Both the position numbers and the translations under genes were made by a program. Below are positions 6,738 to 40,562 of a stretch of DNA of 45,377 bases, piece after piece. The notes beneath the pieces are model-generated. The model was given only the letters and a program-made list of their open reading frames with translations, was not told the origin of the DNA and searched no databases. How positions within the stretch are numbered: position 1 is the stretch's first letter; each line of letters opens with the position of its first letter. The stretch is from Escherichia virus TH13. The stretch lies in sequence record MT446391.1. One strand, written 5' to 3'.

Positions 6738-6834
6738 GCGGATTGCCCGCGAAAGCGGGCAATTTTGCGAGCGCGTAAAACTAAGGTAACATTAATGCCA
6801 CTGGGCGAATGCTCACAACTCAAAGGATTTCGAT

Positions 6835-11508: not shown

Positions 11509-11819
11509 TGCAGCGGGACGTCCCGTTTTGTCCCGCCTCTGTAAAACTGCATACCTACTCACACCCACTGCATAAACCAAAAACGGGACAAACGGGACGT
11601 CCCGATCTGTCCCGCCATGTAAATGTGCATACCTATTCAGATTTCGTGCATAAAGTAAGCGGGACAAAAAGCGGGACAAACAAGGAGCGGGACAAAGCGG
11701 GACAGCACCCCGTCCCCGCCAGTGCTGCCGCGGGTTGCGGCCGATCGGGACAAGCGGGACAAACCCCAGTCTTTCAGACTAGACGGGGGTCAATGGCCCC
11801 CCTCGTCTGAGACTGAATA
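11509..11819. repeat. GGGACA-iteron element copy 1 (shared ~175-bp core about 11647..11819 plus extra upstream GGGAC(G) repeats)
   Basis: multiple GCGGGACA(A) direct repeats, two CGGGACGTCCCG palindromes, terminal hairpin cagactagacggggg..cccccctcgtctgagactg; near-identical core recurs at 40388..40562. Confidence 0.7.
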
Positions 11820-11883
11820 AGGTTTGTTTTAAATTCGCTGATACAATGTCAATCGGCAACTGCATAAAAAAGGGGACTGCATA

Positions 11884-14526: not shown

Positions 14527-14561
14527 TAAAATGGCCCTCACTACAACGTGGGGGCTTTTTT

Positions 14562-15946: not shown

Positions 15947-15948
15947 TC

Positions 15949-20740: not shown

Positions 20741-20747
20741 ATGCGAA

Positions 20748-20767
20748 GGGGCCATATGGCCCCTTTT
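20748..20767. terminator. terminator after gpJ-like gene (possibly bidirectional)
   Basis: ggggcc-atat-ggcccc hairpin followed by T4; convergent gene on the minus strand ends inside the T-run. Confidence 0.55.
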
Positions 20768-21731
20768 AATATATGTTAGGAATGACGAGTAACGGGGTTG
20801 GTACTGCAATATTTTTACCCGGCATTTGGAATTGTTGCCGTGAGTAGTTGCCAATGACGCGGTTTTTAGCTATGCGCACATTATTGCCCGCCATTCGTAT
20901 ACCGTTCATGCGTACGTGGTTATAGCCGCCGTTGTTCTCAATAAGCGCGCCGGTGTATGAAAGCTGGACCAGGCTGTTACCGATGTACTGATCGCCGCCG
21001 CCGATATTAATAAGGCGGTCATAAACAAACGGCTTATTCACAGTTGAGAACGTGACCTGACCCTGGTTGTTTGTCATGGTGATGCCGTTCCCAGGGGTGG
21101 GCGGCGTATTGTTGAATATAACCAAGTCCATTTCAACAGCCGCGCCTACGTCGTCAATCCCACCATAGGATGCATTACGGACGATAATACTTCCGCCATC
21201 GAAGCCGACAGACACGTTTCCGTCGTCCCAGCGCGCGAACGGAACGCCGCTTACTGGTAACGGCATACTTCCGTTCACCCACACGCGCTGCGCATATTGG
21301 CAGGTCATCAGCCTGGATACGTTCGATATCGCGGTGAAGTCCGTCGAGTTCGCCACCAGTAAGCCCGCGTTGCGCGACCCCACCGGCAGCACTTCCATAA
21401 TCACCCCGCCCCATGAGGGAAGCCCGCTATATGCGTTATACGCGTCCTCACCGCGCAAGGTGATTCCGCTATCCCCGTTACGCTGTATTGACGTTATGTA
21501 AAACGGATCTGGCAAGACCAGTGTCTGGTCGAAGACTTCCATCACTTCAACGGGACTTGTTAGCACGACGACCAGATCTGACCCCGGCGTTAGCGGAGTG
21601 TTAATAGTTAGCGTCTTATCAGACTGGCAGCGCTGATAGAATGATGTACAGAATGACGGCGCGCGAAGTCCTGCGGTAATCTCCATGCGCGGCCTTCCGT
21701 CGTTGTAGTCGATAAGTATCCCAGCGCCCAT
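20766..21731 (-). CDS. hypothetical beta-rich (beta-helix-like) protein, reverse-oriented moron
   Basis: 321 aa from ATG 3 nt after the lipoprotein stop (track ORF from GTG 21740); Gly/Asn/Ser/Thr-rich repetitive beta-strand-like segments (NNGGYNHVRMNGIRMAGNNVRIAKNRVIGN); no signal peptide. Confidence 0.55.
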   Translation of the reverse strand: MGAGILIDYNDGRPRMEITAGLRAPSFCTSFYQRCQSDKTLTINTPLTPGSDLVVVLTSPVEVMEVFDQTLVLPDPFYITSIQRNGDSGITLRGEDAYNAYSGLPSWGGVIMEVLPVGSRNAGLLVANSTDFTAISNVSRLMTCQYAQRVWVNGSMPLPVSGVPFARWDDGNVSVGFDGGSIIVRNASYGGIDDVGAAVEMDLVIFNNTPPTPGNGITMTNNQGQVTFSTVNKPFVYDRLINIGGGDQYIGNSLVQLSYTGALIENNGGYNHVRMNGIRMAGNNVRIAKNRVIGNYSRQQFQMPGKNIAVPTPLLVIPNIY

Positions 21732-21733
21732 TA

Positions 21734-21955
21734 TTACCACTCCCGTGATTTAACTGATACCGTACCAGAGAAGTTGCCGTCACTATCGGCAGACAGACCA
21801 GTGAAGCGCATATCCACATCTCCGGCTGGCACTTTCTTCCCGTCGACGTAGCGCAACATGCAGCTACCGTAGGCAACCGTAATGCAATCGCCGTTGTTGC
21901 GTTCTACAGCACAACCGGACAACAGAACCGCACAAATCATAATTAAAGTTTTCAT
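21734..21955 (-). CDS. small lipoprotein (candidate receptor-blocking superinfection exclusion lipoprotein)
   Basis: 73 aa from ATG with strong RBS aggaga; signal peptide MKTLIMICAVLLSGC with lipobox LSGC; divergent from tail fiber gene; function inferred by analogy to Cor/Llp-type lipoproteins. Confidence 0.55.
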   Translation of the reverse strand: MKTLIMICAVLLSGCAVERNNGDCITVAYGSCMLRYVDGKKVPAGDVDMRFTGLSADSDGNFSGTVSVKSREW

Positions 21956-21985
21956 GGTATCATCTCCTATATTTGGTTGAGTTTT

Positions 21986-22014
21986 AGTATTACACCGCTC
22001 GATCAAGAATGCAA
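21986..22014 (-). promoter_or_regulatory. sigma70-like promoter for lipoprotein operon (TTGCAT-N16/17-TAATAC)
   Basis: -35 lies within an ATTGGTTGCAT motif overlapping the tail fiber start codon; coordinates approximate. Confidence 0.4.
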
Positions 22015-23859
22015 CCAATTTACGAGGATTTAGCTATGGCAGCGGGTACTCTATCCGTAACGAATAACAGCAAGGCGGTTGTCGGGGTAGGCACGACGTT
22101 TACCACGTTTACAGCTGGCGACTTCTTAACGCTGGTGGTAGGGCAAGTCCCATACACTGTTGCTATCGCGTCAGTCGAAAGCGACACCGCGCTTACGCTG
22201 GTGCTGCCGTTCGACGGCCCCACGGCAACCGATCTCGCGTGGGATGGCGTTAAGCGCGATACCATGTCACTGGCGACGATGGGCGTAACCGTACAGGCAC
22301 AGAAAGCATTGCGCTTGATGCTTGCAGATGAAAACAACTGGCGTGCAATCTTCGGCGACGCTGAAGAAATAACCGTGACGTTGCCTAACGGGCAGGTAAT
22401 GCAGGGTATGTCATGGGGATATCTGTCGCAGTTGATGAAACAGGTCGACCCAGTTGAGATGCGCAACCTGCAACAGCAAGCCGCCGCATCGGAAGCCGCC
22501 GCGCTGGTGTCACGCAACGAGGCCGAAGGCTTCAAGACTGAGACGGCAGGCATTCGCGACGCCACCAATCAGATTAAGGCAGACACACAGGCGATCCACG
22601 ACGCCACGAATACCATCAAGACGCAGACCGACCAGATTAAGACCGACACGCAGGCCATCAAGGACCAGACGAACCAGATCAAGACCGACACCGGCGTTAT
22701 GAGGGACGAGGCAAACACCGCGAAGACTGACGCGCAAGCCGCCAGCACTGCCGCGCAGGGATATCGCGACCAGGCCGAGGAATGGGCGCAAAGCGTTAAC
22801 GCGGATAACCTGCTAACCAAATCCGGCAACCTCGCGGGGCTTGCGGACAAAAGTGCGTCGTGGGCTAACCTTATGCCGTCCGGCCCGCTTCGAGTAGGCG
22901 CTGATCCCGTCGACAATCTGGACGCTGCGACTAGAGGATGGGTGTGGCGCGGTCTTGATGACGTGGGGGTGTGGGCCTTACGCAATAACTATGCTTCGGA
23001 ACCCGCTGGCGGCGCAGAAGTATACGGCGGTCGCTTCGACTCATCTGCGAACGTCGCAGGGGCCGAAAAATACAGAATGTCGCTGCAACTTCAGGGATTT
23101 AATAACGTAGACGCCTGGACACGTTTGGTTACCGCTGACGTCCGCAGCATGGTGAACGCGGCGACGTGGGACTTTAAGATCGATGGTAAGTTGCTTTTCA
23201 ACAAAGGATTGGTTACATCATCCATCTCGGCGTCGCCCGGTAACACCTATGTCACCCTTGCGAATACATGGAGTGACAGCCAATACTCAGGCCACGTAGG
23301 TTTTGTCGGAGGGGGAACTGGGGTGTCTAATGGTGGGTGGCGTAACTTTATTTCGTTCGGGGCGCTGATCCACCCACTAGCCGGTAACTCACACCCCCAC
23401 GCTATGATTTCGCAGGTCTTTGACTATGATTTGTCGACTGGGGTACAGCCCAACGGCGATATCGTTCGAAACACAACATTCAACCCCGAAGCATACGATA
23501 TTACTTTCGGCAACAACTCAGGGACTGTTAACTATCTTTTTTCAAAGTCCCCAGTATCCGACAGGGCGCTGAAGCATGATATCGCCAGGATCGATACTCA
23601 AGTCGCGTACGATAACGTTATGGCTATGGAGTACTCGTCCTTTGTTTATAACTACGACAAAAAAGAGACGGTTAGACGTGGTTTTATCGCGCAGCAGTTG
23701 GAAGAGATCGACCCGCAGTATGTCCGTAAGTACGCCAACGCAACCGGTAAAGAGTCTCTGGCATTGGATGAAAACGTTCTACTACTGGACCTTATCGCGA
23801 CTGTTCAGCATTTAGCGGCAAAGGTTGAAGCCTTAGAAAGTAAGTTAGCGGATAAATAA
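22009..23859 (+). CDS. tail fiber protein with C-terminal intramolecular chaperone (peptidase S74-like) domain
   Basis: 616 aa; repeated xTxxIKxDTQAIxD heptad-like repeats; C-terminal SDRALKHDIARIDTQVAYDNVMAMEYSSFVYNYDKKETVRRGFIAQQLEEIDPQYV matches the self-cleaving chaperone domain of phage fibers/tailspikes. Confidence 0.8.
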   Translation: MQPIYEDLAMAAGTLSVTNNSKAVVGVGTTFTTFTAGDFLTLVVGQVPYTVAIASVESDTALTLVLPFDGPTATDLAWDGVKRDTMSLATMGVTVQAQKALRLMLADENNWRAIFGDAEEITVTLPNGQVMQGMSWGYLSQLMKQVDPVEMRNLQQQAAASEAAALVSRNEAEGFKTETAGIRDATNQIKADTQAIHDATNTIKTQTDQIKTDTQAIKDQTNQIKTDTGVMRDEANTAKTDAQAASTAAQGYRDQAEEWAQSVNADNLLTKSGNLAGLADKSASWANLMPSGPLRVGADPVDNLDAATRGWVWRGLDDVGVWALRNNYASEPAGGAEVYGGRFDSSANVAGAEKYRMSLQLQGFNNVDAWTRLVTADVRSMVNAATWDFKIDGKLLFNKGLVTSSISASPGNTYVTLANTWSDSQYSGHVGFVGGGTGVSNGGWRNFISFGALIHPLAGNSHPHAMISQVFDYDLSTGVQPNGDIVRNTTFNPEAYDITFGNNSGTVNYLFSKSPVSDRALKHDIARIDTQVAYDNVMAMEYSSFVYNYDKKETVRRGFIAQQLEEIDPQYVRKYANATGKESLALDENVLLLDLIATVQHLAAKVEALESKLADK

Positions 23860-23865
23860 GGAGAA

Positions 23866-23886
23866 GGGGCCATACGGCCCCTTTTT
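23866..23886. terminator. bidirectional terminator between late and early arms
   Basis: ggggcc-atac-ggcccc hairpin followed by T5; convergent genes on both sides. Confidence 0.65.
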
Positions 23887-24460
23887 AGTTTGAGTTTTCC
23901 CAGTCCATTTTGCGCCGCACCAGCGGACTCTCGTAATACTCCTTACCCTCCACTTCCACCAAAGGCCAGTCGTTCACGATTACGTACGGTTCCGCGATAT
24001 CCTCAATCACGCCGTGCGCGCTATGTTGCCCGAACGCTACGCCAACCAGGATGACACCGGCAACTCGACGGGATAGATATTCTCGAGCGCAACGTGCCTC
24101 GACCAGTCCGCGACGGATGCCGCTGGTGGCTTTGACCTCGTAGGTCCAGACGGCATCAATCATGTGCTCACGGAAGTCGGGGCCGGACTTAACCTTGCGC
24201 TTACCGACCATGATAATATCGCCGCGGTCGATAGTATTTGCGCTAAACAGGCCAGTACGCATAAGCAAACCTTGCGGGATACAACTACGCCCGCCTGCCA
24301 GCCCTTCAAGGTACATGCCTGCAAACATCTCGCCCAGCACACCGACAAGACGGCTTTGCTTGCACGCGTCAGACTTTAAGCGCCACTGGTCAAACTCGAC
24401 GCTTGCTAACATTGCCGCGATGTGGAATTGTTTACCGGTTATTTCATATTCGCCGTACAT
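23885..24460 (-). CDS. hypothetical protein (possible PD-(D/E)XK-like nuclease)
   Basis: 191 aa; GDIIMV ... YEVK arrangement weakly reminiscent of PD-(D/E)XK; preceded by UUCG-tetraloop hairpin gcgggc-ttcg-gcccgc; last gene of early arm. Confidence 0.5.
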   Translation of the reverse strand: MYGEYEITGKQFHIAAMLASVEFDQWRLKSDACKQSRLVGVLGEMFAGMYLEGLAGGRSCIPQGLLMRTGLFSANTIDRGDIIMVGKRKVKSGPDFREHMIDAVWTYEVKATSGIRRGLVEARCAREYLSRRVAGVILVGVAFGQHSAHGVIEDIAEPYVIVNDWPLVEVEGKEYYESPLVRRKMDWENSN

Positions 24461-24502
24461 TGTGAAGCCCTCATTGCTGCGGGCCGAAGCCCGCTATTAG
24501 AA

Positions 24503-24835
24503 TTATTTAAGTGCGCTAGTCACCAGTGTTTTTTCCATATTGCGGAAGTCTTCCGGCGTCATGAGGATTTTGGACCCATCCTCGCCAGTGAGCACGACCA
24601 TAGGCTGGACTTCTTGATCCGCAATGCCGAAATTGGCGGCTTTAACGGTCTTCCCTAACGAGGCCACCGTATCCTCGGCAACGCGCATTCCACTGTTATA
24701 CGCATTAATCTCGCCATCCAGGCGCACGGACAGGTCCGAAGGCTTGAACGCGCCGCCGGTCTTGATAGGCCAGCCCTTGAGGCTGTCGAATTGCGCTGCC
24801 GTTGTATCGATCTGAATCTCGTCATGCACGGTCAT
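24503..24835 (-). CDS. hypothetical protein
   Basis: 110 aa from internal ATG (MTVHDEIQ...) of track ORF 24503..24910. Confidence 0.45.
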   Translation of the reverse strand: MTVHDEIQIDTTAAQFDSLKGWPIKTGGAFKPSDLSVRLDGEINAYNSGMRVAEDTVASLGKTVKAANFGIADQEVQPMVVLTGEDGSKILMTPEDFRNMEKTLVTSALK

Positions 24836-24977
24836 GTAAGACTCGCCCGGTAAGCGCGTTAAACACGGCAGCGATCTGTTTCGCGCTGCGTTCTTCTTTC
24901 GCGTTGTCATAGCCGTTTTCTTTTCCGCGCTGTTCCATAGTGGTGGCGGCGTTTTTGCAGTATTCGTATGCTTTCAT
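24822..24977 (-). CDS. small hypothetical protein (51 aa)
   Basis: ATG with strong RBS aaaaggagacaaacc; reads MKAYEYCKNAATTMEQRGKENGYDNAKEERSAKQIAAVFNALTGRVLHDRA; below track cutoff; coordinates approximate. Confidence 0.4.
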   Translation of the reverse strand: MKAYEYCKNAATTMEQRGKENGYDNAKEERSAKQIAAVFNALTGRVLHDRA

Positions 24978-24994
24978 GGTTTGTCTCCTTTTAG

Positions 24995-25016
24995 GGGAGG
25001 CAGTATTGCCTCCCGA
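24995..25016 (-). other. conserved 5-prime stem-loop element copy A
   Basis: gggaggca-atac-tgcctccc perfect hairpin flanked by conserved aaccacatc, about 20 nt upstream of a start codon; near-identical copy at 25322..25343. Confidence 0.5.
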
Positions 25017-25028
25017 TGTGGTTGTGTG

Positions 25029-25298
25029 TTATTTCTTGGCCCACTCCAGAGTTTTACACTCGTAGTCTTCTTCGGCCTGGCTGAGCACACACGTCATCAT
25101 GTGCTCCGCATTGTCAAATCCGCTGGATTTAGCGTATTTATCTGCTCCTCCAACCTCTGCAATCTCGGCGTTTAGCGCCTCTACAGAATGCAGTTCGATA
25201 TTATTAAGATAAGGGCTTGAAACGCCTTCTTTGTCTTCAATCATTGACCAGAATGCGTTGATTTTGTTGTCCAGGTCCGCACTAATGAATTGTTTCAT
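25029..25298 (-). CDS. hypothetical protein
   Basis: 89 aa from ATG (MKQFISADLD...) with RBS aaggtg; track ORF 25029..25376 extends upstream through the hairpin. Confidence 0.5.
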   Translation of the reverse strand: MKQFISADLDNKINAFWSMIEDKEGVSSPYLNNIELHSVEALNAEIAEVGGADKYAKSSGFDNAEHMMTCVLSQAEEDYECKTLEWAKK

Positions 25299-25321
25299 AA
25301 TATTCACCTTTTTGTTGCGGG

Positions 25322-25343
25322 AGGCGGTATTGCCTCCCGATGT
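25322..25343 (-). other. conserved 5-prime stem-loop element copy B
   Basis: cgggaggc-aatacc-gcctcccg hairpin; same flanks as copy A. Confidence 0.5.
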
Positions 25344-25363
25344 GGTTAATATAGTTGGTTGCA

Positions 25364-25834
25364 TTATTGGTTGCAAGTGAATTTTGCAAGATTCACAGAA
25401 TAAATATGCGGGACCAGTTCTTCACACGCCCGTTTGATGGCGGCGATGTTCTTCGCGCAGTCGTCAATGATGACCAGTTCGTTAACTTCTGCATAGCACA
25501 CCAGGCCAAATACGGAACGGGCCTTGTACTCTGGCGGCGGCGTGTCATCAAGCATATGGCGTAAGAACAGACGACCTTTCGGGAATCTATCCAATTGCTC
25601 TTTCGTTGACTCCCAGCAATCTGACTGGCGGTTTGACAGGTACGCAATGTCGAAGCCCTGTTTAGCGTACATGCGCAATAACGGCAGCATGTCATAATTA
25701 ATGTCTTCGCGGACGTGGGCCTTATGCCACTTCGCCCAAAACGTTGATTTAGTCTTGATCCCCGGAACTAGGTCGTCGCGCACACTGCTTGACCCGTTGA
25801 TAACGCCATCTAAATCGCAAATCAGTAGTTTCAT
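25364..25834 (-). CDS. HAD-superfamily hydrolase (putative nucleotidase/phosphatase)
   Basis: 156 aa; N-terminal MKLLICDLDGVI matches HAD motif I (DxDG[TV]). Confidence 0.6.
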   Translation of the reverse strand: MKLLICDLDGVINGSSSVRDDLVPGIKTKSTFWAKWHKAHVREDINYDMLPLLRMYAKQGFDIAYLSNRQSDCWESTKEQLDRFPKGRLFLRHMLDDTPPPEYKARSVFGLVCYAEVNELVIIDDCAKNIAAIKRACEELVPHIYSVNLAKFTCNQ

Positions 25835-26052
25835 TTTAATTCCGCCATTAAATTTTCACGTACAATACGGGCCGAGAATGCGTCGCACACAAGATGGCAA
25901 CGCGCCGTCATGACAAGCCAGCCAGTTAGGTCAAGGCCCAGCAATTGATGAGGTTGGCTTGCGCGCCTTACTTTATTTCCAGGGAAAACCTGGTAGCGTT
26001 TAATTATTTCATCCACGACGCGAGGACTTCGGTCGACGACTAAGATATTCAT
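25831..26052 (-). CDS. small hypothetical protein
   Basis: 73 aa track ORF; start uncertain because it overlaps the 3-prime end of the methyltransferase gene. Confidence 0.3.
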   Translation of the reverse strand: MNILVVDRSPRVVDEIIKRYQVFPGNKVRRASQPHQLLGLDLTGWLVMTARCHLVCDAFSARIVRENLMAELK

Positions 26053-26518
26053 TTAATTCACCTTCGCTCATTATTTCGATTTGTGCGCTGCCGTTTGGCG
26101 GCACTTCTTCAAAGATTATCAATTGCTGGCACTTGTTGTTACTCGGCCCGACTTCGCCGGTGACGGCGTGTATAAATCTAATCCGCCAGTCCAGAAGAAT
26201 TATCAGGTTTGCAGTCTTCCTGGCCAGCTTCGCCCACTTCGTCGACGTGTCCTGATTCAGTAGCATGACCGTCCGGCGTCCGTGCGCTGCGCACTCTACC
26301 CACGGCAGCGGATCGGAATACGGCGGATTGCACCACTTCCACCCTTTCAACTCGGACCAGTCCACATCAAGCGCACTGTGTTCCGCCGTGAAGTAACGCG
26401 GTAGCAGATGATTGGCGTCGCTTGCCGCCATATCGTAACGGAATCGGTATTTCCGACGAAGCGGTTTAAATAAAGCTGGCGGCGTGCGCCAGCTATCTTT
26501 TTGCTCATTCTCCGTCAT
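26009..26518 (-). CDS. DNA N6-adenine methyltransferase (phage Dam-like)
   Basis: 169 aa; W-x-TP...F near N-terminus and catalytic NPPYS motif (WKWCNPPYSD). Confidence 0.8.
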   Translation of the reverse strand: MTENEQKDSWRTPPALFKPLRRKYRFRYDMAASDANHLLPRYFTAEHSALDVDWSELKGWKWCNPPYSDPLPWVECAAHGRRTVMLLNQDTSTKWAKLARKTANLIILLDWRIRFIHAVTGEVGPSNNKCQQLIIFEEVPPNGSAQIEIMSEGELNEYLSRRPKSSRRG

Positions 26519-26963
26519 AGTCGGGATCTATCGCATACAGGGCGGTTTTCTTGCCACTGGATAGCACGCGTTGGACTCGGGATAGCTCCGCCCTACTGAG
26601 CGGTCGGCTATCGGAATAGTAGCTGCCGTTTGCACGCCACGCTATACGCACCAGTCCTTTCCGCGGGATCGAAGACTGGCTGCCCTTCGGACGGACGTAC
26701 TCCTCGGCCAGTTTGCAATGCTCGCGCAGACCTTCGGCAGTGATGCGGTTTAGCGCGACGGTGGTTGTGTACCCGGTGCGCTGCATAATACCCATCAACT
26801 CATACAGCAGTTCGAAGCGCTCCTCTAACTCCTTGCGCATCTTTTCCTCGCCTTCATAGCTCGCCAGGTAGGTATCCGCGAGCGCGTTCGCCCGTTCGAC
26901 CTGTTCGCGGGCTTCGAGGCATTGCGCGGCCCAGTAATTTTTCTCTTCTTGTAAAATTTTCAT
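26505..26963 (-). CDS. hypothetical protein
   Basis: 152 aa; RBS ggagacaacacg; no recognisable motif. Confidence 0.5.
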   Translation of the reverse strand: MKILQEEKNYWAAQCLEAREQVERANALADTYLASYEGEEKMRKELEERFELLYELMGIMQRTGYTTTVALNRITAEGLREHCKLAEEYVRPKGSQSSIPRKGLVRIAWRANGSYYSDSRPLSRAELSRVQRVLSSGKKTALYAIDPDYDGE

Positions 26964-26982
26964 CGTGTTGTCTCCAGGTATT

Positions 26983-27007
26983 AAAAAAGGCGTCCAAACC
27001 GGACACC
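26983..27007 (-). terminator. hairpin plus U-tract (terminator or 5-prime leader structure)
   Basis: minus-strand RNA ggugucc-gguuu-ggacgcc followed by U6; lies just downstream of a promoter-like paired motif, so it may instead be an attenuator. Confidence 0.4.
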
Positions 27008-27017
27008 CTTAAGATAA

Positions 27018-27044
27018 TGCAACCAATATGATTATGCAACCAAT
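27018..27044 (-). promoter_or_regulatory. paired ATGCAACCAAT motifs / candidate promoter (TTGCAT-N17-TATCTT on minus strand)
   Basis: two copies of atgcaaccaat 17 bp apart in the intergenic gap between 27045..27368 and 26505..26963. Confidence 0.4.
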
Positions 27045-27368
27045 TTACGCATAAAAGTTCGGGTCGCGTGCGACGTCTACCAGGTAAAGGTTGCTTATGC
27101 GGTTGCCGTAGTGCCCTGGAGTGCGCTGGCGGCACACAACGGCGAAGCCTGGAGGGATTGTATTGCCCGTCTCAATAATCCACGCCACGCGTGCGCCAGA
27201 CAGCGTCTTTCCGTTGCATTCGATACGTGTTCCACCATCGGCAGTATTGATGTTGCCAATCTTGCAGCCGGTGGACTTCAGACGGATGACTCCGGTTTTG
27301 CTGTCGTAGGTGAATAGCTGGTTAGTCATTGCGACTGAAAAATCGATGGTTTCGTATGTAGCGTTCAT
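27045..27368 (-). CDS. hypothetical protein (degenerate HNH-like?)
   Basis: 107 aa; ARVAWIIETGNTIPPGFAVVCRQ...NRISNLYLV loosely resembles the HNH_3-type core but catalytic His/Asn not clearly conserved. Confidence 0.4.
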   Translation of the reverse strand: MNATYETIDFSVAMTNQLFTYDSKTGVIRLKSTGCKIGNINTADGGTRIECNGKTLSGARVAWIIETGNTIPPGFAVVCRQRTPGHYGNRISNLYLVDVARDPNFYA

Positions 27369-28075
27369 TTTAAATTTTCCTCGTTAACCGCTATCGCGAA
27401 GCCGCGCGGAGTGAGTGAGCGGATTAATTTTGTACGAGCGGATTTACCACCGAGGCGACTATACTGTTTCGAGTACCCTTTTTCAACGAAAACAGGTTTC
27501 TTCTCTGGCATACGGAAGCCGTTGCCGGTCCATAAGCAAGTCAGCTTCGGATATGAATCGCGGGCGTTGATGTATTCCGGGAAGAGCGGGTGTACGTCAT
27601 CCTCCGGCAGATACCCCCCATACTCCCACGGGTCGAACGAGTGATCCGGCTTGCGCCACTGGGTGGAAAGCACACTGCGCGGATTCTCAATCATATATGG
27701 CACTTCGAAGAAGTCACCCAGGTAAGCGGCGATCTTCGCGGTGCGCACCGCCTTAAGCTGAAAGGCGGGGTCTTTTGCACGTTTGCGCGGGAAAGCTGGC
27801 GCGCCGCTCACTGCCAGATCCGTACACGGAGGGAACGCATAGATTATATCCGGCGTACCGAAATCGCCATTCATCGCGCGGTCCACAAAGTCCATATCGA
27901 TAAACTCATTGCGATATCGGATTCCACGACCATAAATCCGGTAGTCAAGGTATGATCCGTGATCGGCTTCGGAGTAGTTGAAGCAATAACACTTATGCCC
28001 CATCTCGGCAGCACGCTCAATCATCAAGCCGCTGCCGTCAAACAATGACCAGATTGTCATTTTCGCAATAGTCAT
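27365..28075 (-). CDS. DNA (cytosine-5)-methyltransferase-like protein, unusually short
   Basis: 236 aa; motif I-like SLFDGSG, motif IV-like FPPCTDLAVSG (Pro-Cys dipeptide), motif VI-like MIENP; no room for a typical target-recognition domain or motifs IX/X. Confidence 0.5.
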   Translation of the reverse strand: MTIAKMTIWSLFDGSGLMIERAAEMGHKCYCFNYSEADHGSYLDYRIYGRGIRYRNEFIDMDFVDRAMNGDFGTPDIIYAFPPCTDLAVSGAPAFPRKRAKDPAFQLKAVRTAKIAAYLGDFFEVPYMIENPRSVLSTQWRKPDHSFDPWEYGGYLPEDDVHPLFPEYINARDSYPKLTCLWTGNGFRMPEKKPVFVEKGYSKQYSRLGGKSARTKLIRSLTPRGFAIAVNEENLK

Positions 28076-29496
28076 TTGCGCGCCTTCTTAGCTTTCATGT
28101 ATTCCATCAAGTCGTCCTGAATGTCTCGCTTACTGTCGCGACGCTCGGCGACCAATTCGTCCAGTGTCCCGCGAGCCTGGATAATGTAGACGAATACTGG
28201 TCGAGGGTGTCCGGCTTGCATCTGGCGAACCGGCCCGATACGTTCAACGATCTGCGAAAAGTGTTCAAAGTTCCAGGTGTCTGAGAAGATTGCCAGGTGA
28301 TGACCGCCGTCCTGCAAGTTAAGGCCGTGACCAGCCGATGCCGGGTGTGCGAACATGATGGGGATCTCGCCTCTGTTCCACGCTTCCATATCCTTATTGC
28401 CTTGCTTACCCTTACCCAGCGCTACGCCGTGCGGAAATTTCTTCTTAAGACGTGCCAGGTCATGCTTATACTGATACGCAACGAGCAACGGCGCGCCGTT
28501 CAACTCCTCCACGATACTTTCCAGCGCGTCCAGTTTAGCGTCGTGAATTTTCACCCATTCATCGGTGCGCTCGCCGTCTTCGTCGACCTTATATACGGCC
28601 CCGGAAGCAAGCTGAAGGCACTTAATGGTCTTCGACGCGGCGTTTGCGGCCTCCACAGTTCCGCTTTCCAGTTCGGCAAATAGCTCACTTTCAAACTGGT
28701 CGTAAATCTTGCGGGCTTTCTTCGGCAGGTCCACGACAACCGGCGTATAGATTGGCTTGTCGCACCCGAAGTATTCAGCCGCGTCAACGGTTAGTGATAC
28801 GTCAGACAGGCGTTGTTGTATTTCTTTCTCGGAGTTCTTTAGCGGGGCGTGCTGCATAGTGAAGCTGCCAGGCTTAACCGGCTTGCTAATGAACCAGCGA
28901 TCGGTAAATGCCTTATAGCTACTGCCGAGGCGTTCGCCACCGTCGACAAACCACGTCTGACCCCACAGGTCTTTCAGTCCGTTTGGAGCGGGCGTGCCGG
29001 TCAGGTTAATCCAGCGCTTGACGTGCTTATGTGCGATCGCCGCCAGGGCGCGGGCGCGCTTACTGCCCTGCTTGCTGCGGTAGCCTTTCAGCTTAGTGGA
29101 TTCATCGGCAACAACGACCGTAAAGGGCCACGCATCGCCGTAATAGTCAACCAACCACTCAACCACATCATAGTTAACACAAACCACGTTAGCGTCGCTC
29201 TCAAGCGCTGCAATACGGTCCTTCTCAGGTCCAGTGCCGTCTACGACCAGCAGGGATGAGAATCGCCATTTCTCCTGCTCCGGTGGCCAGGTGCCGGACG
29301 CAACGCGCAGCGGGGCCAGCACCAGTACGCGGTCCTCATGATGGGACAGGACGCCAGTCTGGAACATTTTATTCAGCGCCCACATTGTCGCGCCGGTTTT
29401 ACCGGATCCCATTGTCGCCCATATATTACATCGCTTATGCTTGAGGATGAACGCGGTTATCAACTTCTGATATTCGCGGCGTCGGAATCTTGCCAT
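28072..29496 (-). CDS. SNF2/DEAD-like superfamily 2 helicase
   Basis: Walker A MGSGKTGAT, motif II-like VVADESTK, C-terminal helicase domain; start placed at internal ATG (MARFRRREYQ) to avoid an 86-nt overlap; track ORF extends to 29586. Confidence 0.75.
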   Translation of the reverse strand: MARFRRREYQKLITAFILKHKRCNIWATMGSGKTGATMWALNKMFQTGVLSHHEDRVLVLAPLRVASGTWPPEQEKWRFSSLLVVDGTGPEKDRIAALESDANVVCVNYDVVEWLVDYYGDAWPFTVVVADESTKLKGYRSKQGSKRARALAAIAHKHVKRWINLTGTPAPNGLKDLWGQTWFVDGGERLGSSYKAFTDRWFISKPVKPGSFTMQHAPLKNSEKEIQQRLSDVSLTVDAAEYFGCDKPIYTPVVVDLPKKARKIYDQFESELFAELESGTVEAANAASKTIKCLQLASGAVYKVDEDGERTDEWVKIHDAKLDALESIVEELNGAPLLVAYQYKHDLARLKKKFPHGVALGKGKQGNKDMEAWNRGEIPIMFAHPASAGHGLNLQDGGHHLAIFSDTWNFEHFSQIVERIGPVRQMQAGHPRPVFVYIIQARGTLDELVAERRDSKRDIQDDLMEYMKAKKARK

Positions 29497-29500
29497 GTCT

Positions 29501-29725
29501 TTATTCCGCCTTTTTCCAGACTTCTGTCTCACTGTTCCAGTTCCTTTTTGTGGCGTCGTAGTTGGTGGCGTGTCCGATGTGGACACCGGTAGCCCGGAAG
29601 CTCTTAAATTTTTGCCAGCACACCGTCAACGGCAGCGGGTAATTCATGCCTGCGATAAACCACACGCGATCGCCCGGTTTACATTCGCCCAGCTTGGTGA
29701 GTCGGTAATGTTCTTTCATCGTCAT
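29501..29725 (-). CDS. small hypothetical protein
   Basis: 74 aa; stop immediately precedes the helicase start. Confidence 0.45.
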   Translation of the reverse strand: MTMKEHYRLTKLGECKPGDRVWFIAGMNYPLPLTVCWQKFKSFRATGVHIGHATNYDATKRNWNSETEVWKKAE

Positions 29726-29763
29726 GTCTCTCTAAAAATGGCGGGACAAGCCCGCCGTATTGA

Positions 29764-29937
29764 TTATTCTTGTTCTGCGCGATAGCGGCGCTGCCGTTCG
29801 CGCTCTTTCTTATTGCGGCACGACTTGCACTCGGCCCGATGCCCGTCCGGGCTGCGCGCAGTCTTACCGGTGTATTTGTGGAACTGGGACAGCGGCTTGA
29901 TGCAGCCGCAATTACTGCAACGTTTTTCTTCAATCAT
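29764..29937 (-). CDS. zinc-ribbon protein (CxxC...CxxC)
   Basis: 57 aa from ATG (MIEEKRCSNCGC...ECKSCRNKK) with RBS gagga; track ORF start at 30009 lies inside the duplicated segment. Confidence 0.5.
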   Translation of the reverse strand: MIEEKRCSNCGCIKPLSQFHKYTGKTARSPDGHRAECKSCRNKKERERQRRYRAEQE

Positions 29938-29968
29938 TTCTAAAATCCTCGATAGTGCTAACCGGCAC

Positions 29969-29997
29969 ACTATACCGCTACGCGACCAATTCAGCAA
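29969..29997 (-). promoter_or_regulatory. sigma70-like promoter (TTGCTG-N17-TATAGT) at left edge of tandem duplication; second copy at about 30556..30584
   Basis: -35 overlaps an AGCAACCAAT motif; -10 TATAGT; coordinates approximate. Confidence 0.4.
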
Positions 29998-30256
29998 CCA
30001 ATAAATCACAGTCGGCTATGTTGTCGATAACGCGAACGTCCGCACCGCGGCGGGCCATTCGTTCATGTTCACGTACCTGGTGCGGCTTCGGTTTCCCACC
30101 TGGGCGCTTCACTTCGACGAACACTATTTTGCCGTTGATGATAATAATCAGGTCGGGCGCACCTGCGCGCCCCTCCCATGCCAGTTTTCGGCAGAATCCC
30201 CCAACGGCTTTAACCAGCTTCATCAGGTGACTTTGTATCTTGCCTTCTGGTGTCAT
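29978..30256 (-). CDS. VRR-NUC domain nuclease, copy 1
   Basis: 92 aa; ...FVEVKRPGGKPKPHQ... with conserved D/E-x-K catalytic core typical of VRR-NUC. Confidence 0.8.
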   Translation of the reverse strand: MTPEGKIQSHLMKLVKAVGGFCRKLAWEGRAGAPDLIIIINGKIVFVEVKRPGGKPKPHQVREHERMARRGADVRVIDNIADCDLLVAELVA

Positions 30257-30444
30257 TTGGTCTGCAACTCCACGTTACGCAGACGAAGGTCTACCGGTAT
30301 ATCCGACCGGCCGGTTAGTGCCAGCGCCAGGTTTTCAGGCGTGACGAGTGCCGTAATGGTCTTGCCACGTTCCAGTCTAATGACGATTCGAATCTCGTCA
30401 TTGTCCGTCGCGCCAGCGCGCATAATGCTCATTTCTGCTTTCAT
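30253..30444 (-). CDS. small hypothetical protein, copy 1
   Basis: 63 aa from ATG (MKAEMSIMRAG...) with RBS caggaag; ATGA overlap with VRR-NUC. Confidence 0.45.
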   Translation of the reverse strand: MKAEMSIMRAGATDNDEIRIVIRLERGKTITALVTPENLALALTGRSDIPVDLRLRNVELQTK

Positions 30445-30564
30445 AATCTTACTTCCTGTACCTGTACATAATGTCGCCTTCGGCGGCAAGTGGGAAGCCT
30501 TTCGCCCAAATAGGCAGGTCGCACATCTAAAATCCTCGATAGTGCTAACCGGCACACTATACCG

Positions 30565-30843
30565 CTACGCGACCAATTCAGCAACCAATAAATCACAGTC
30601 GGCTATGTTGTCGATAACGCGAACGTCCGCACCGCGGCGGGCCATTCGTTCATGTTCACGTACCTGGTGCGGCTTCGGTTTCCCACCTGGGCGCTTCACT
30701 TCGACGAACACTATTTTGCCGTTGATGATAATAATCAGGTCGGGCGCACCTGCGCGCCCCTCCCATGCCAGTTTTCGGCAGAATCCCCCAACGGCTTTAA
30801 CCAGCTTCATCAGGTGACTTTGTATCTTGCCTTCTGGTGTCAT
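30565..30843 (-). CDS. VRR-NUC domain nuclease, copy 2
   Basis: identical 92-aa translation to copy 1. Confidence 0.8.
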   Translation of the reverse strand: MTPEGKIQSHLMKLVKAVGGFCRKLAWEGRAGAPDLIIIINGKIVFVEVKRPGGKPKPHQVREHERMARRGADVRVIDNIADCDLLVAELVA

Positions 30844-31031
30844 TTGGTCTGCAACTCCACGTTACGCAGACGAAGGTCTACCGGTATATCCGACCGGCCG
30901 GTTAGTGCCAGCGCCAGGTTTTCAGGCGTGACGAGTGCCGTAATGGTCTTGCCACGTTCCAGTCTAATGACGATTCGAATCTCGTCATTGTCCGTCGCGC
31001 CAGCGCGCATAATGCTCATTTCTGCTTTCAT
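30840..31031 (-). CDS. small hypothetical protein, copy 2
   Basis: identical 63-aa translation; begins 5 nt after DNA polymerase stop. Confidence 0.45.
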   Translation of the reverse strand: MKAEMSIMRAGATDNDEIRIVIRLERGKTITALVTPENLALALTGRSDIPVDLRLRNVELQTK

Positions 31032-31035
31032 AATC

Positions 31036-33327
31036 TTACTTCCTGTACCTGTACATAATGTCGCCTTCGGCGGCAAGTGGGAAGCCTTTCGCCCAAATAG
31101 GCAGGTCGCACATCAGCGCGCAAAGCTCCTCGGTCGTGTAGTCGTCGGTGTCCGGCACTTCTGTGATCAATTCGTCGTGTACTGACAGGACGATTTCATA
31201 TCCGGCAGCTTCAACGCCTGGCATGGACCATGCGAGAATATCGCGGCACAACGCCTGTACGATGTTCTCCGTCAGTTTGCCGCCGTAGGTGTACTGGAAG
31301 CCCCACTGGCGCGTAGTCTGATTCTCGCCCTGGTATTTGATGCGGGTGCTGGTGCGCTTCTTGCCGGTGTCTTCGTCAATCTCGGTCGTGACCGACAGCG
31401 CGATGCCTGGGTAGCTCATGATGCGCCCGGACGGCAACTCAATTTTCAACCACCACCCAGCGGCGTTCGGGTCGTCGCGCTCCTCGTCGAAGGTTGGGTC
31501 GTGCTTCGCCTTCGTGCGCACAATCTTAAGCGCTTTCCTACCGTCCGGGCGAACGTTCGCGCCGGCCCAGTATGCTTTGCCAGGATTGCGGATCGCACAT
31601 AACACCGCGTCCTCAAGCTCGGCCCAAAAGGCTACCGTCTTCGGGTGAGCCTCGCGCCACATACGTTTGATTGCGTCACAAGTCAGCCATACGTTTTTCG
31701 GCAGTATGTATGTTGGGCGCTCGTCCTTCTTACCGGGCTTCGGCGGGCGCTTCGCTTCGTTAATGCGGGCGTACTCATAACCACGTTTCGCCGCGGCCCA
31801 AATGTGATCCGGGAACGTGCCTTTCATCACGTCCGCCATAGTGTAAAGGTCGAGGCCCAGGTTTTTAGCGAACTGCAAGAACGCCGCGACGCCGCCACCA
31901 TAGCCCAGTCCCAATTCACACGCCTTACCGATCTGGCGCAAGTCTTTGCGGTTGGCTTTGATGTAATCCGGGTCAAGGCCGAACATCTTACCGGCAGTCT
32001 CGCAATAGATATCGCGACCGGCCTTAAACACCATTAGCGCGGTTTTCTCGCCCGCGATCCAGGCAAGGCCACGCCCTTCCACGTTGGAGTAGTCCGCGAC
32101 GACAAACTTCTTGCCCTTCGCCGGAATGATGCACCCACGAACGGTCGAGGCGGTCAGCTTAGATATGTCATACGCCCAGTGCGCGGTCCCGCGTAACAGG
32201 GAGTTGATGCCGTTGGTGAGCATGTGCGACCGCACCCAAAACGAGACGTCGCTCTCGCCTTCGCGGCGCTTAATCTTCCCTTCGTGGTCGTCGCTATACT
32301 CGCCGCGTGCCAGGTTTTGCGGCTGGAAGCCTTTACCTGCCCAGCGCAGCGTGCGCTTTGCACCACCATACTGAAGACACCCACGGCGGCGACCATCTGC
32401 GGATAAGCCATTAACGAGCGGATTGTACTTAGTCGAGGCCGTTGATGACGCGCCGAGGCGCATTTCGATAAGCGCTTTGCCTTCGTCGGGGAAGTCCGTG
32501 TCTTCAAGCAGGTCGTTAAGTGTGGATTTCTGCGCGTTGTGGATTGTGAACGCCGGGGCGATATCACGCAGGATTGGCAGGAAGTCATTGCCTGTCAGTT
32601 TACCACCAAATCGCTCCCAGGCTTCCTCCTTCAATTCTTCCTTATGCGCCTGCACCGCTTTGATCGCGGCGTTCGCCAGGTCAACGTCCACATAGAATCC
32701 GCGGTCGTTGATCAACTGGTCAATAAGCAGTATCTCGTCTTCCTTCGGAGTATTACCCCAGTCCGGTATGCGCCAGTAGACCTCACGCATCGCGATAATA
32801 TCCAGCGCGGCATATCGCAGAAATTTGGCCCATTCTTCAGGGTGAGTCTCGCGCGTGTAGCGGCGTATTTTGTAGGTCTTAGGGGTAGGCTTACAGAATC
32901 GTTTGATCAGCGCCTTGCCTGCCTTATCCTTCGCGTGCTCTGCGTCAACGCCCAGCACCTGACACTGCATATCGAGGCTACCCGGCAGCGCGTGCCGAAA
33001 GGCCATAATCATGGTATCTTCGATCTGGCACACTGGCAGGTCAATGCCCCACTTCTCGCGAATGACCAGGCGGTCAAACAGGAGGCCGTTAGCCATCACG
33101 ATTTTTGCTTTCTTGCGGCATACCTGGCGGAGCGCCTTGCGCAGTTCACGCGGCATTGTTGGGGATTCAGTGGCATCCCATGTCTGCACGCGGCCCTCGT
33201 CGATGGCGTATGTGCAAATCATAATCTCGGTGGTTGGGTGCTCTGCGTAGGCGTACGCCCCTACTTTCTTCAGGTCAACCCCGCTGAATGTCTCGGTGTC
33301 GAGAAACAGGCGTTCGAAGTCTTTCAT
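31036..33327 (-). CDS. DNA polymerase, family A (Pol I-like) with N-terminal 3-prime-5-prime exonuclease-like region
   Basis: 763 aa; LSVHDELITEV (motif C-like HDE), ELGLGYGGG motif B-like region; last 26 codons are duplicated in the tandem repeat. Confidence 0.85.
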   Translation of the reverse strand: MKDFERLFLDTETFSGVDLKKVGAYAYAEHPTTEIMICTYAIDEGRVQTWDATESPTMPRELRKALRQVCRKKAKIVMANGLLFDRLVIREKWGIDLPVCQIEDTMIMAFRHALPGSLDMQCQVLGVDAEHAKDKAGKALIKRFCKPTPKTYKIRRYTRETHPEEWAKFLRYAALDIIAMREVYWRIPDWGNTPKEDEILLIDQLINDRGFYVDVDLANAAIKAVQAHKEELKEEAWERFGGKLTGNDFLPILRDIAPAFTIHNAQKSTLNDLLEDTDFPDEGKALIEMRLGASSTASTKYNPLVNGLSADGRRRGCLQYGGAKRTLRWAGKGFQPQNLARGEYSDDHEGKIKRREGESDVSFWVRSHMLTNGINSLLRGTAHWAYDISKLTASTVRGCIIPAKGKKFVVADYSNVEGRGLAWIAGEKTALMVFKAGRDIYCETAGKMFGLDPDYIKANRKDLRQIGKACELGLGYGGGVAAFLQFAKNLGLDLYTMADVMKGTFPDHIWAAAKRGYEYARINEAKRPPKPGKKDERPTYILPKNVWLTCDAIKRMWREAHPKTVAFWAELEDAVLCAIRNPGKAYWAGANVRPDGRKALKIVRTKAKHDPTFDEERDDPNAAGWWLKIELPSGRIMSYPGIALSVTTEIDEDTGKKRTSTRIKYQGENQTTRQWGFQYTYGGKLTENIVQALCRDILAWSMPGVEAAGYEIVLSVHDELITEVPDTDDYTTEELCALMCDLPIWAKGFPLAAEGDIMYRYRK

Positions 33328-33494
33328 TGCTTTATCCTCACTACGGCGTCAGCGCTGCCGATCATGGAGAAGATGCCGTCGGACAGGGCGATCTCTTCTC
33401 CATTGTTGCGAATCTCGGCAACTGTGAAATACTCGCCCAGCAATTTGGACCATACCTGCATTCCGACTTTTACTTCGCTGGCTTTAATACGCAT
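33324..33494 (-). CDS. small hypothetical protein (56 aa)
   Basis: ATG with RBS aggacaatgaaaa; stop overlaps polymerase start (ATGA); below track cutoff; coordinates approximate. Confidence 0.35.
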   Translation of the reverse strand: MRIKASEVKVGMQVWSKLLGEYFTVAEIRNNGEEIALSDGIFSMIGSADAVVRIKQ

Positions 33495-33508
33495 TTTTCA
33501 TTGTCCTA

Positions 33509-33533
33509 TTAAAAAGCCCGCATTAAGCGGGCT
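33509..33533 (-). terminator. rho-independent terminator after SSB-like gene
   Basis: minus-strand agcccgc-uuaau-gcgggcu hairpin followed by U5. Confidence 0.55.
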
Positions 33534-33552
33534 TGAATAGTGGGCTTTGCCC

Positions 33553-34338
33553 TTAACGGCGGCGACGTTTACGTGGCGCTTCGTCTTCGTCGTCGTCCTC
33601 ATCTTCGTCATCGCGTGGCTTACGACGTTTGCGAGGTTTTTCATCTTCCTCATCGTCGTCATCACGACGTTTTGACTTTTTGGACTTGCGCGGCTTGTCA
33701 TCTTCATCATCGTCATCACGACGTTTTGACTTTTTGGACTTGCGCGGTGCTTCGTCTTCGTCGTCGTTGTCGTTGTCCAGGTCTTCATCGGAGCAAGAAG
33801 ACCCGCCACCTCCGAAGGCTTCGCCGTCTTCACGGAATCGCAGACCCAGCAAGCCAGCCCCGAGACCTTTGCCGTTGGTATTGTTCCATGCCCAAATATC
33901 AAGGGACACGTTGCAATAACAACCGGAGTAGATCTCCTGGCCTTCGATCTCGTCGCCTTCTACGTTCAGACCTTGTTCCGTCTGCTTCTCGCCGAGTGAC
34001 GTTTGAATGATCGGCTGTTTGAACGATTTGGCGTTGATATACAACATGCCTTCGAATTCTTCGGTTACTTCGTCGCGCTCGTCACCGTCGCGAACTGCGC
34101 ATTCCTTAGAATCCTGGGCGTAGTGGCGGTCCATCCACTTATCGGCATTCTTCTCGGATTTCAGCTTATCGGTGAGCACTGCGCGCGCTGCCGCTTCCAC
34201 TTTGTCCACCTGCGGATCTTCTTTATCCAGAAGAATAACGGCACGGTATGCCGGTTTTTGACCATCCTGTTTAGGGGTATCACGTTCCCAAATTTTAAGG
34301 AAGCATACGCGCACATTTTTCAGGTTGACTTTAGCCAT
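33553..34338 (-). CDS. ssDNA-binding-like protein with C-terminal charged-repeat tail
   Basis: 261 aa from ATG (MAKVNLKNVRVCF...) with RBS gaggaa; N-terminal OB-fold-like region; C-terminal 18-aa repeats KPRKSKKSKRRDDDDEDD. Confidence 0.5.
   Translation of the reverse strand: MAKVNLKNVRVCFLKIWERDTPKQDGQKPAYRAVILLDKEDPQVDKVEAAARAVLTDKLKSEKNADKWMDRHYAQDSKECAVRDGDERDEVTEEFEGMLYINAKSFKQPIIQTSLGEKQTEQGLNVEGDEIEGQEIYSGCYCNVSLDIWAWNNTNGKGLGAGLLGLRFREDGEAFGGGGSSCSDEDLDNDNDDEDEAPRKSKKSKRRDDDDEDDKPRKSKKSKRRDDDDEEDEKPRKRRKPRDDEDEDDDEDEAPRKRRRR
33659..33747 (-). repeat. in-frame coding tandem repeat (54-bp period) in SSB-like gene
   Basis: tcatcacgacgttttgactttttggacttgcgcgg repeated twice. Confidence 0.6.
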
Positions 34339-36712: not shown

Positions 36713-37231
36713 TTAGTCTTCCAGTTCGAAATAAGTCTCGACGATTTCTTTTAAATCTTTGTGGAAGTCTTCGACGTCGTCGTCTTCCAGCTTGGCGATT
36801 GATTTGATCTCGAACGCTTCCAGCAGGTCGTCAAATTCGTCGTTAGCATCGTCGTCATCGCCACCGGCGATAATCGCGGCGTACTGCTTGATCTCGTCGC
36901 GCATCTCTGCCAGCGGATCGGCATCTTTCTTCCCTTTGCCTTTCGCCGGAGCTTTTTTACCCTTCGCCGGTTTTTCGTCTTCGGCTTCTTCATCGTCGTC
37001 ATCTTCTACGACTTCTTTTTTGGCCTTACCTTTAGCCGGGGATTTTTTAGATTTAGCCGGTTTTTCGTCTTCGGCGTCATCGTCGTCATCTTCGACAACT
37101 TCTTTTTTGGCCTTAGACGGCTTCTTATCTTCCTGTTTACCAACGGCAGCGCCAACGGTTTCATAATGCTTTGCAATGGTTTCCAGTGCTACTACGCCGC
37201 GAGTGATCAGGTTTACGATTTGCTCAAACAT
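36713..37231 (-). CDS. acidic charged-repeat protein, first gene of early arm
   Basis: 172 aa from ATG (MFEQIVNL...) with RBS ggagatatacc; two 30-aa repeats EVVEDDDD-AEDEKPAK-KK-PAKGK-KK and an acidic C-terminal helix; track ORF extends upstream without RBS support. Confidence 0.6.
   Translation of the reverse strand: MFEQIVNLITRGVVALETIAKHYETVGAAVGKQEDKKPSKAKKEVVEDDDDDAEDEKPAKSKKSPAKGKAKKEVVEDDDDEEAEDEKPAKGKKAPAKGKGKKDADPLAEMRDEIKQYAAIIAGGDDDDANDEFDDLLEAFEIKSIAKLEDDDVEDFHKDLKEIVETYFELED
36966..37114 (-). repeat. in-frame coding tandem repeat (90-bp period) in acidic early gene
   Basis: gccggtttttcgtcttcggc...cttcttttttggcctta repeated twice. Confidence 0.6.
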
Positions 37232-40387: not shown

Positions 40388-40562
40388 GCATAAAGTAAGC
40401 GGGACAAAAAGCGGGACAAACAAGGGGCGGGACAAAGCGGGACAGCACCCCTGTCCCACCCCGGATGACGCGGCCTGGAGAGGAGCGGGACAGGCGGGAC
40501 AACCCCCAGTCTTTCAGACTAGACGGGGGGTCAATGGCCCCCCTCGTCTGAGACTGAATAAA
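40388..40562. repeat. GGGACA-iteron element copy 2
   Basis: tgcataaagtaagcgggacaaaaagcgggacaaacaagg-gcgggacaaagcgggacagcaccc ... agtctttcagactagacgggggg-tcaatgg-cccccctcgtctgagactgaataa; about 75 bp 5-prime and 60 bp 3-prime near-identical to copy 1, middle about 40 bp diverged. Confidence 0.7.

Follow-up and report, generated by a model that had tools for sequence, protein, structure and literature searches.

The perfect 587-bp tandem repeat in the genome record of Escherichia virus TH13 is most probably an untrimmed assembly overlap

Results

Genes and features of the repeated unit

We examined the sequence record of Escherichia virus TH13 (MT446391.1), a Dhillonvirus; at its full length of 45,377 nucleotides, with 54.4% G+C, the record is referred to here as the window. 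Comparison of the window with itself indicated that two units of 587 bp lie directly adjacent and head to tail, without a single difference between them (Table 1). Identity at a period of 587 runs from 29939 to 30527 over 589 nt with 0 mismatches, and no other exact direct repeat of at least 40 nt occurs in the window. An earlier note on this DNA had described a perfect tandem repeat, each unit of which carries the last 26 codons of the DNA polymerase gene polA, a 63-aa ORF, a 92-aa VRR-NUC gene and a promoter-like element. The repeat is indeed present in the deposited record and the three coding elements were found as described (the 26 codons being 25 sense codons and the stop), but a consensus scan of 29400..31400 gave no sigma-70-like promoter. 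The additional 3′ fragment of polA owes its existence to the repeat alone. On the other side, the left boundary of the repeat is 3 nt away from the ATG of a downstream Lar-like ORF.

Table 1. Positions of the genes and repeat features in the TH13 window.
Feature	Position	Strand	Remarks
polA, intact family A DNA polymerase, 763 aa	31036..33327	-	PF00476, E = 3e-16; last 79 nt in copy 2
polA 3′ fragment, repeated (25 sense codons and stop, no start codon)	30449..30527	-	Equals 31036..31114 minus 587
63-aa ORF of unknown function, unit 2 copy	30840..31031	-	phrog_1222, residues 1-63 of 63, E = 7.5e-35
63-aa ORF, unit 1 repeat copy	30253..30444	-	phrog_1222, full length
92-aa VRR-NUC nuclease gene, unit 2 copy	30565..30843	-	PF08774; PDB 4qbn, E = 2e-22
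92-aa VRR-NUC nuclease gene, unit 1 repeat copy	29978..30256	-	PF08774; PDB 4qbn
57-aa Lar-like/zinc-finger ORF, directly downstream, outside the repeat	29764..29937	-	phrog_5558, E = 3e-16
Copy 1 of the 587-bp unit	29941..30527		Identical to 30528..31114; would be one original contig end if the repeat is an artefact
Copy 2 of the 587-bp unit	30528..31114		Identical to 29941..30527; would be the opposite original contig end
Junction 30-mer, GGCAGGTCGCACATC followed by TAAAATCCTCGATAG	30513..30542		Sole sequence peculiar to the two-copy arrangement
TC microhomology, 2 bp	29939..29940		Common to the left flank and the unit end; 589-nt run against 587-nt period

The 92-aa protein scored 26.7 bits against Pfam PF08774, above the gathering cut-off of 23.8, and its translation contains the PD-(D/E)xK catalytic residues in a PD...ExK signature (D35, E48, K50) with a downstream Q60. 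Its alignment with chain A of 4qbn is nearly full length (residues 2-87). PDB 4QBN and 4QBO are dimeric prokaryotic/viral VRR-NUC Holliday-junction resolvases, proteins that resolve such junctions. The TH13 protein is like these resolvases in its full-length alignment and in carrying both the signature and Q60, but the likeness is limited to the gene inside the repeat, which in the real genome would be single-copy. A VRR-NUC gene is ordinary in Dhillonviruses, with annotations that read endonuclease, HJ resolvase or VRR-NUC.

One explanation for the repeat is that, very recently, the 587 bp were genuinely duplicated in tandem in the stock of TH13; the duplication would have arisen by illegitimate (slipped or microhomology-mediated) recombination in replication and been fixed during plaque purification. 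Such an event would leave both the 63-aa ORF and the VRR-NUC gene intact and in duplicate within the replication operon; we regard both the event and this outcome as improbable. The repeat does stand in the deposited consensus with both gene copies intact, and the 2-bp microhomology previously reported at the junction is present, as the 589-nt run against the 587-nt period indicates. However, microhomology of at least 2 bp is expected at 15.5% of random junctions in the TH13 genome (P = 0.155), and the junction of a second repeat, in the sibling genome TH11, has 0 bp. The microhomology in TH13 is thus at chance level and says nothing about mechanism.

An identical sibling genome carries the unit once

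The genome of TH11 (MT446389) is 100% identical to the TH13 window across all 44,790 unique bases, and although the two are circularly permuted, no SNP separates them. TH11 carries the 587-bp unit once; a different perfect tandem repeat, of 515 bp, is present instead, which corresponds to window 11352..11866 and lies about 18 kb from the TH13 repeat. Removing one copy from each record leaves the same length (45,377-587 = 45,305-515 = 44,790). Because the repeats differ, a genuine duplication in TH13 would require two independent events, each fixed in its own stock within a few passages. That both repeats are real is, in our view, more improbable still; were it so, tandem duplications of less than a kilobase would frequently arise and become fixed in this Dhillonvirus lineage. 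The first base of the TH11 record falls at window 41464, 16 nt ahead of an ATG, a start that was found in no related record. No papers naming TH11 together with Dhillonvirus were found, and the genome announcement is the only literature source.

The two-copy arrangement is absent from the related phages examined

In Dhillonvirus matches to a 3-kb query, 150 of 157 records cover at least 80% of it. Among the matches listed, 29 of 30 span about 2,410 bp of the query, which corresponds to one copy, and the exception (AV129) is longer owing solely to an insert in polA. Two copies were seen in none of about 150 related phage genomes, as judged from the spans among the matches listed, or of about 50 further fetched contigs. 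The earlier note had pointed to related phages for a single-copy arrangement, and this is what we observed in TH11, in the relatives listed and in each of the 37 fetched loci with the unit. The junction itself did not recur in independent data: neither IMG/VR nor any of the 82 fetched loci contains the 30-mer, and JGI metagenomes and GTDB genomes gave no match to its central 24-mer. These observations all speak against a genuine duplication.

Relatives' records begin close to window 1-120 or at about 40.5-40.8 kb, and 29941 and 31114 are neither the start nor the end of any of them. This bears on the idea that the virion DNA physically ends in the 587-bp sequence as a direct terminal repeat, and that the assembly contained both copies, which re-ordering of the record then made internal. 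Direct terminal repeats of several hundred bp are known for some phage groups, and the repeats in TH11 and TH13 are both of that size. Against this, the repeat of the identical TH11 genome is at a different position, relatives' records never start at the TH13 repeat, and the unit begins inside polA and stops 3 nt before the start of the next gene rather than at a boundary of the packaging module. Moreover, the end repeats in the same study shift between the identical genomes TH49 and TH50 (see below). We find a physical terminal repeat barely credible.

A read-level contig crosses the region unbranched

Exact-protein look-ups in Logan with polA, the tape-measure protein, the Nmad5 protein and a lineage-specific 110-aa ORF gave two runs, SRR11772945 with a 21.3-kb contig and SRR11772955 with contigs of 3.6-3.9 kb. 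With the VRR-NUC, 63-aa, helicase, 236-aa and 111-aa proteins, the matches were dominated by identical proteins of relatives. Contig SRR11772945_3507 (21,308 bp; from a public run assembled at k=31) matches window 11791..33685 with 100% identity and contains the unit once. The contig is unbroken at 29940/29941 and 31114/31115, and also at the right boundary of the TH11 repeat (11866/11867). Since a well-covered tandem junction would branch the assembly graph and end the contig, its continuity speaks against the junction, and a single copy is found in independent assemblies, namely TH11 and this unbranched contig. SRR11772945 may be the run of TH11; if it is, the contig would refute the 515-bp repeat of TH11 directly and the 587-bp repeat of TH13 only by analogy. 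The two run numbers (ending in 945 and 955) are 10 apart, and the same distance separates the experiment numbers, SRX8326089 for the TH11 reads and SRX8326099 for the TH13 reads.

An unbranched contig would also be compatible with a minority duplication variant in the lysate, its junction real but of low frequency, that was taken up by a greedy assembler, as Logan graph cleaning would drop a junction of low coverage. We found no positive evidence for such a variant, and it would leave unexplained why each of ten records from the study holds one redundancy; we rate its probability as negligible.

The second run, SRR11772955, is fragmented, with contigs at window 3721..7664 and 23953..27584, and exact-protein look-up found no intact polA in it. 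A genuine duplication predicts this, as the junction would lie in the last 26 codons of polA. However, the tape-measure gene (2.6 kb), located outside both repeats, is likewise not intact in this run, and the missing polA is therefore uninformative.

Other records of the study contain end overlaps

The study prepared its libraries with Nextera XT and sequenced them by MiSeq 2x250 with inserts of 350-450 bp and about 57x coverage, and the reads were assembled by means of Geneious Prime's de novo assembler, followed by PhageTerm (PMC7498436). From the 38-genome set we read eight further TH records in full, and in all eight the first N bases equal the last N bases. The overlap is perfect in TH10 (74 bp), TH49 (98 bp), TH26 (149 bp), TH16 (668 bp), TH20 (807 bp), TH50 (833 bp) and TH21 (872 bp), and imperfect in TH28 (about 3.8 kb). 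TH49 and TH50 are 100% identical 40,945-bp genomes, and yet their overlaps differ in size and in genome position, which indicates that the overlaps are wrap-arounds of the contig rather than physical terminal repeats. Among the ten TH records examined, TH11 and TH13 alone have no end overlap, and these two have a perfect internal repeat, so that each of the ten holds exactly one redundancy. The internal repeats of 515 and 587 bp are within the size range of the end overlaps. The overlaps in other records from this pipeline, of 74 to 872 bp (and the larger, imperfect one of TH28), are a further argument against a genuine duplication in TH13.

Discussion

The earlier note had left two readings, a very recent duplication with a higher nuclease dosage or an artefact of assembly. 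Of these, the artefact is supported, while the single copy in TH11, the single copy in the Logan contig and the pipeline redundancies in other records count against a biological duplication. We put the probability at roughly 93% that the 587-bp repeat is an artefact of assembly and curation, in which the overlap of a circular contig was left untrimmed and the record was re-opened elsewhere. What was observed directly is the repeat itself, the lack of it in both an identical sibling and a read-level contig, and a like redundancy in all the other study records examined. For a genome assembling as a circle, Geneious would have built de novo one contig that overran its own start, so that its first 587 bases equalled its last 587. 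With this overlap untrimmed, the contig would then have been taken as circular and re-opened elsewhere, near the conventional Dhillonvirus start, which would join the redundant ends head to tail within the record. We infer this rotation step, of which the paper says no more than that PhageTerm was used (PMC7498436), and the junction would be expected to be absent from TH13's own reads. The real genome would be 44,790 bp, with the 3′ end of polA, the 63-aa ORF and the VRR-NUC gene once each.

Several features of the repeat are those of an untrimmed end overlap re-opened at a new origin. The copies are perfect and head to tail; at 587 bp against 2x250-bp reads, the repeat is about one or two reads long; its position is arbitrary, cutting a gene, and it is absent from an identical sibling; and sibling records of the same pipeline have end overlaps of 74 to 872 bp. 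The difference is that the redundancy is internal in TH11 and TH13 and terminal in the eight other records. Some points count against an artefact: in those eight records the redundancy stayed terminal, so that TH11 and TH13, the two Dhillonvirus records, call for an additional rotation as an assumption; the 2-bp microhomology, though at chance level, fits illegitimate recombination; and intact polA is missing from SRR11772955, as a real junction predicts, although random breaks predict the same.

Tandem segmental duplications of biological origin are exemplified by the tandem duplications of lambda and the gene 'accordions' of poxviruses, cases for which junction reads or PCR, together with selection for size or dosage, provide support. 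The TH13 repeat is similar in being head to tail, in having a short junction microhomology and in including whole genes. It differs in that its junction is absent from one read-level assembly and in having no known selective context. If the duplication were true, the dosage of the junction-resolving VRR-NUC nuclease and of the 63-aa ORF would be doubled beside a Lar-like anti-restriction gene, and TH13 would provide a phage counterpart of the poxvirus accordions and, on a modest scale, an instance of genes recently amplified within the replication module of a phage.

Together, these data suggest that the 587-bp repeat is almost certainly not a real biological feature of TH13, and the main significance of the finding is one of data hygiene. 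The proper length of both MT446391 (TH13) and MT446389 (TH11) would be 44,790 bp, and the TH13 count of 65 ORFs would include a spurious second VRR-NUC gene and a spurious second 63-aa ORF. More broadly, untrimmed overlaps in the records of this study inflate genome sizes, and comparative or machine-learning work may mistake them for terminal repeats or duplicated genes.

The 587-bp repeat in the TH13 record

The deposited TH13 sequence does contain the 587-bp tandem repeat, but the phage itself almost certainly does not, and we put the probability that it is an untrimmed contig overlap at about 0.93. Comparison of the window with itself at a period of 587 gave 589 nt of unbroken identity (29939..30527 against the sequence 587 nt further on); the units at 29941..30527 and 30528..31114 are therefore identical, and the left flank shares a 2-bp 'TC' with the end of the unit. 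These data bear out the two head-to-tail units described in the earlier note, and no other exact direct repeat of at least 40 nt occurs in the window. The junction microhomology that it reported is present but at chance level, with 15.5% of junctions placed at random in this genome expected to share at least 2 bp. ORF and domain matches agreed with its account of the gene content, in which each unit carries the 3' end of polA (26 codons, namely the last 25 sense codons and the stop), a 63-aa ORF and a VRR-NUC gene. The promoter-like element that it placed in each unit was not recovered, as a search of 29400..31400, covering both units, found no sigma-70-like promoter.

Features in and around the repeated unit and elsewhere in the TH13 window
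Feature	Coordinates	Strand	Match or remark
Family A DNA polymerase (polA), 763 aa	31036..33327	-	PF00476
63-aa ORF	30840..31031, repeated 30253..30444	-	phrog_1222
92-aa VRR-NUC protein	30565..30843, repeated 29978..30256	-	PF08774, PDB 4qbn
57-aa Lar-like ORF	29764..29937	-	phrog_5558; next to unit, outside repeat
51-aa and 110-aa ORFs	24503..24990	-	one 173-184-aa DUF6378 gene in relatives
GCGGGACAA cluster, 9 sites	11528..11762		at most 1 mismatch; upstream of tape-measure gene
GCGGGACAA cluster, 6 sites	40399..40502		at most 1 mismatch; near start of several Dhillonvirus records
54 bp x 2.2 copies	33650..33767		in-frame tandem repeat
90 bp x 2.0 copies	36939..37115		in-frame tandem repeat

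The sibling isolate TH11

TH13 belongs to a set of 38 announced sewage coliphage genomes, in which it is listed as MT446391, 45,377 bp, 54.4% G+C (Table 1 of PMC7498436); all TH sibling records that we fetched carry the GenBank flag UNVERIFIED. TH11 (MT446389, 45,305 bp), isolated on another host, is circularly permuted relative to the window and 100% identical to it over all unique sequence, the lone BLAST 'mismatch', which sits at a repeat boundary, being an edge effect rather than a SNP. TH11 holds the 587-bp unit once. A perfect tandem repeat of its own, 515 bp long, lies at TH11 15266..16295 (corresponding to window 11352..11866), with 0 bp of junction microhomology. Without the repeats the lengths are equal (45,377-587 = 45,305-515 = 44,790). 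Two genomes without a single SNP between them thus have perfect repeats of about 0.5 kb that are not the same, and the TH11 repeat very probably arose as an artefact of this kind as well. A genuine recent duplication in TH13 would need independent duplications to have become fixed twice, in stocks with no SNP between them, over a few passages, and we consider it very unlikely.

Upstream of the tape-measure gene lies an intergenic repeat region, which the TH11 repeat spans. The two GCGGGACAA clusters each fall within a block of about 198 bp, with 87% similarity between the blocks, and may be where a regulator or packaging protein binds. The split of the DUF6378 gene in TH11 and TH13 could reflect a frameshift or a sequencing error; its 110-aa form is carried by both read runs described below.

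Contigs from public reads

Logan contigs (k=31 assemblies of public runs) were located by exact-protein look-up. A well-covered tandem junction would be expected to create a de Bruijn branch at both unit boundaries, with the contig ending there. Contig SRR11772945_3507 (21,308 bp) matches window 11791..33685 at 100% identity with the unit once, and runs unbroken across 29940/29941, 31114/31115 and the right boundary of the TH11 repeat (11866/11867). Its two ends fall instead at a 36-nt interspersed repeat (11785..11820) and, near 33.7 kb, at the 54-bp tandem repeat, which encodes part of the charged C-terminal tail of an Enc34-like ssDNA-binding protein (DDDEDDKPRKSKKSKRR motif). SRR11772955 holds the same phage in fragments (contigs recovered, window 3721..7664 and 23953..27584). 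The two runs are very probably those of TH11 and TH13, because the SRR numbers and the SRX numbers of these phages are both 10 apart. Whichever phage SRR11772945 represents, its reads contradict at least one of these repeats; should it be the TH13 run, the 587-bp repeat is the one contradicted.

End overlaps across the TH series

We read eight further TH genomes in full, and in all eight the first bases of the record equal the last: 74 nt in TH10, 98 in TH49, 149 in TH26, 668 in TH16, 807 in TH20, 833 in TH50, 872 in TH21 and about 3.8 kb, imperfectly, in TH28. TH49 and TH50 are one 40,945-bp T7-like genome deposited twice, 100% identical, with different record starts; because their starts and overlaps differ, the overlaps are not physical terminal repeats, and are instead contigs running round the circle beyond their own start. 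Among the ten TH records, TH11 and TH13 alone lack an end overlap and alone have an internal perfect repeat, whose sizes (515 and 587 nt) fall inside the end-overlap range. A terminal repeat or a low-frequency variant, even taken together, is less probable still than a genuine duplication, which would itself have arisen among records that, in every other case examined, show the artefact.

On the simplest account, TH11 and TH13 had the untrimmed overlap too, and re-opening moved it to the interior of the record. The TH13 contig would have run beyond its own start, and its redundant end, left untrimmed, would have moved inside when the contig, taken as circular, was re-opened elsewhere. The window starts 45-120 bp from the starts of several other Dhillonvirus records; a rotation step is absent from the description of the study (PMC7498436). 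Together, the sibling, the pipeline, the Logan contig and the relatives favor the artefact that the earlier note offered beside a very recent duplication.

Relatives and the replication module

The comparison with related phages that the earlier note proposed gave the single-copy arrangement. The unit region matches 157 Dhillonvirus records (HK578-type E. coli siphophages), and in 150 of these the match extends over 80% or more of the 3-kb query. Among the matches listed, 29 of 30 have the single-copy span (about 2,410 bp), and the sole exception, AV129, is longer due only to a polA insert; the unit is single in all 37 fetched loci containing it. The junction 30-mer was absent from IMG/VR, and its central 24-mer from JGI metagenomes and GTDB genomes.

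Some Dhillonviruses (AV129, 3452..6640, and two other loci) encode a 1062-aa polA rather than the 763-aa form, and the roughly 299 extra residues could be an intein or homing-endonuclease domain. The slot between polA and VRR-NUC also varies among relatives, holding the 63-aa ORF, a 110-aa ORF, a 200-aa ORF or nothing, with VRR-NUC abutting polA.

The VRR-NUC protein matches PF08774 at 26.7 bits (cut-off 23.8 bits) and PDB 4qbn at E = 2e-22, and has the PD...ExK signature residues D35, E48 and K50. By analogy with the 4QBN and 4QBO proteins, which we take to be small dimeric junction-resolving nucleases, it is most likely an enzyme of this type. The module order is polA, the variable small-ORF slot, VRR-NUC, the Lar-like ORF and an SNF2 helicase. 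The raised nuclease dosage suggested earlier finds no support; in the Dhillonvirus replication module, VRR-NUC is an ordinary component present as a single copy.
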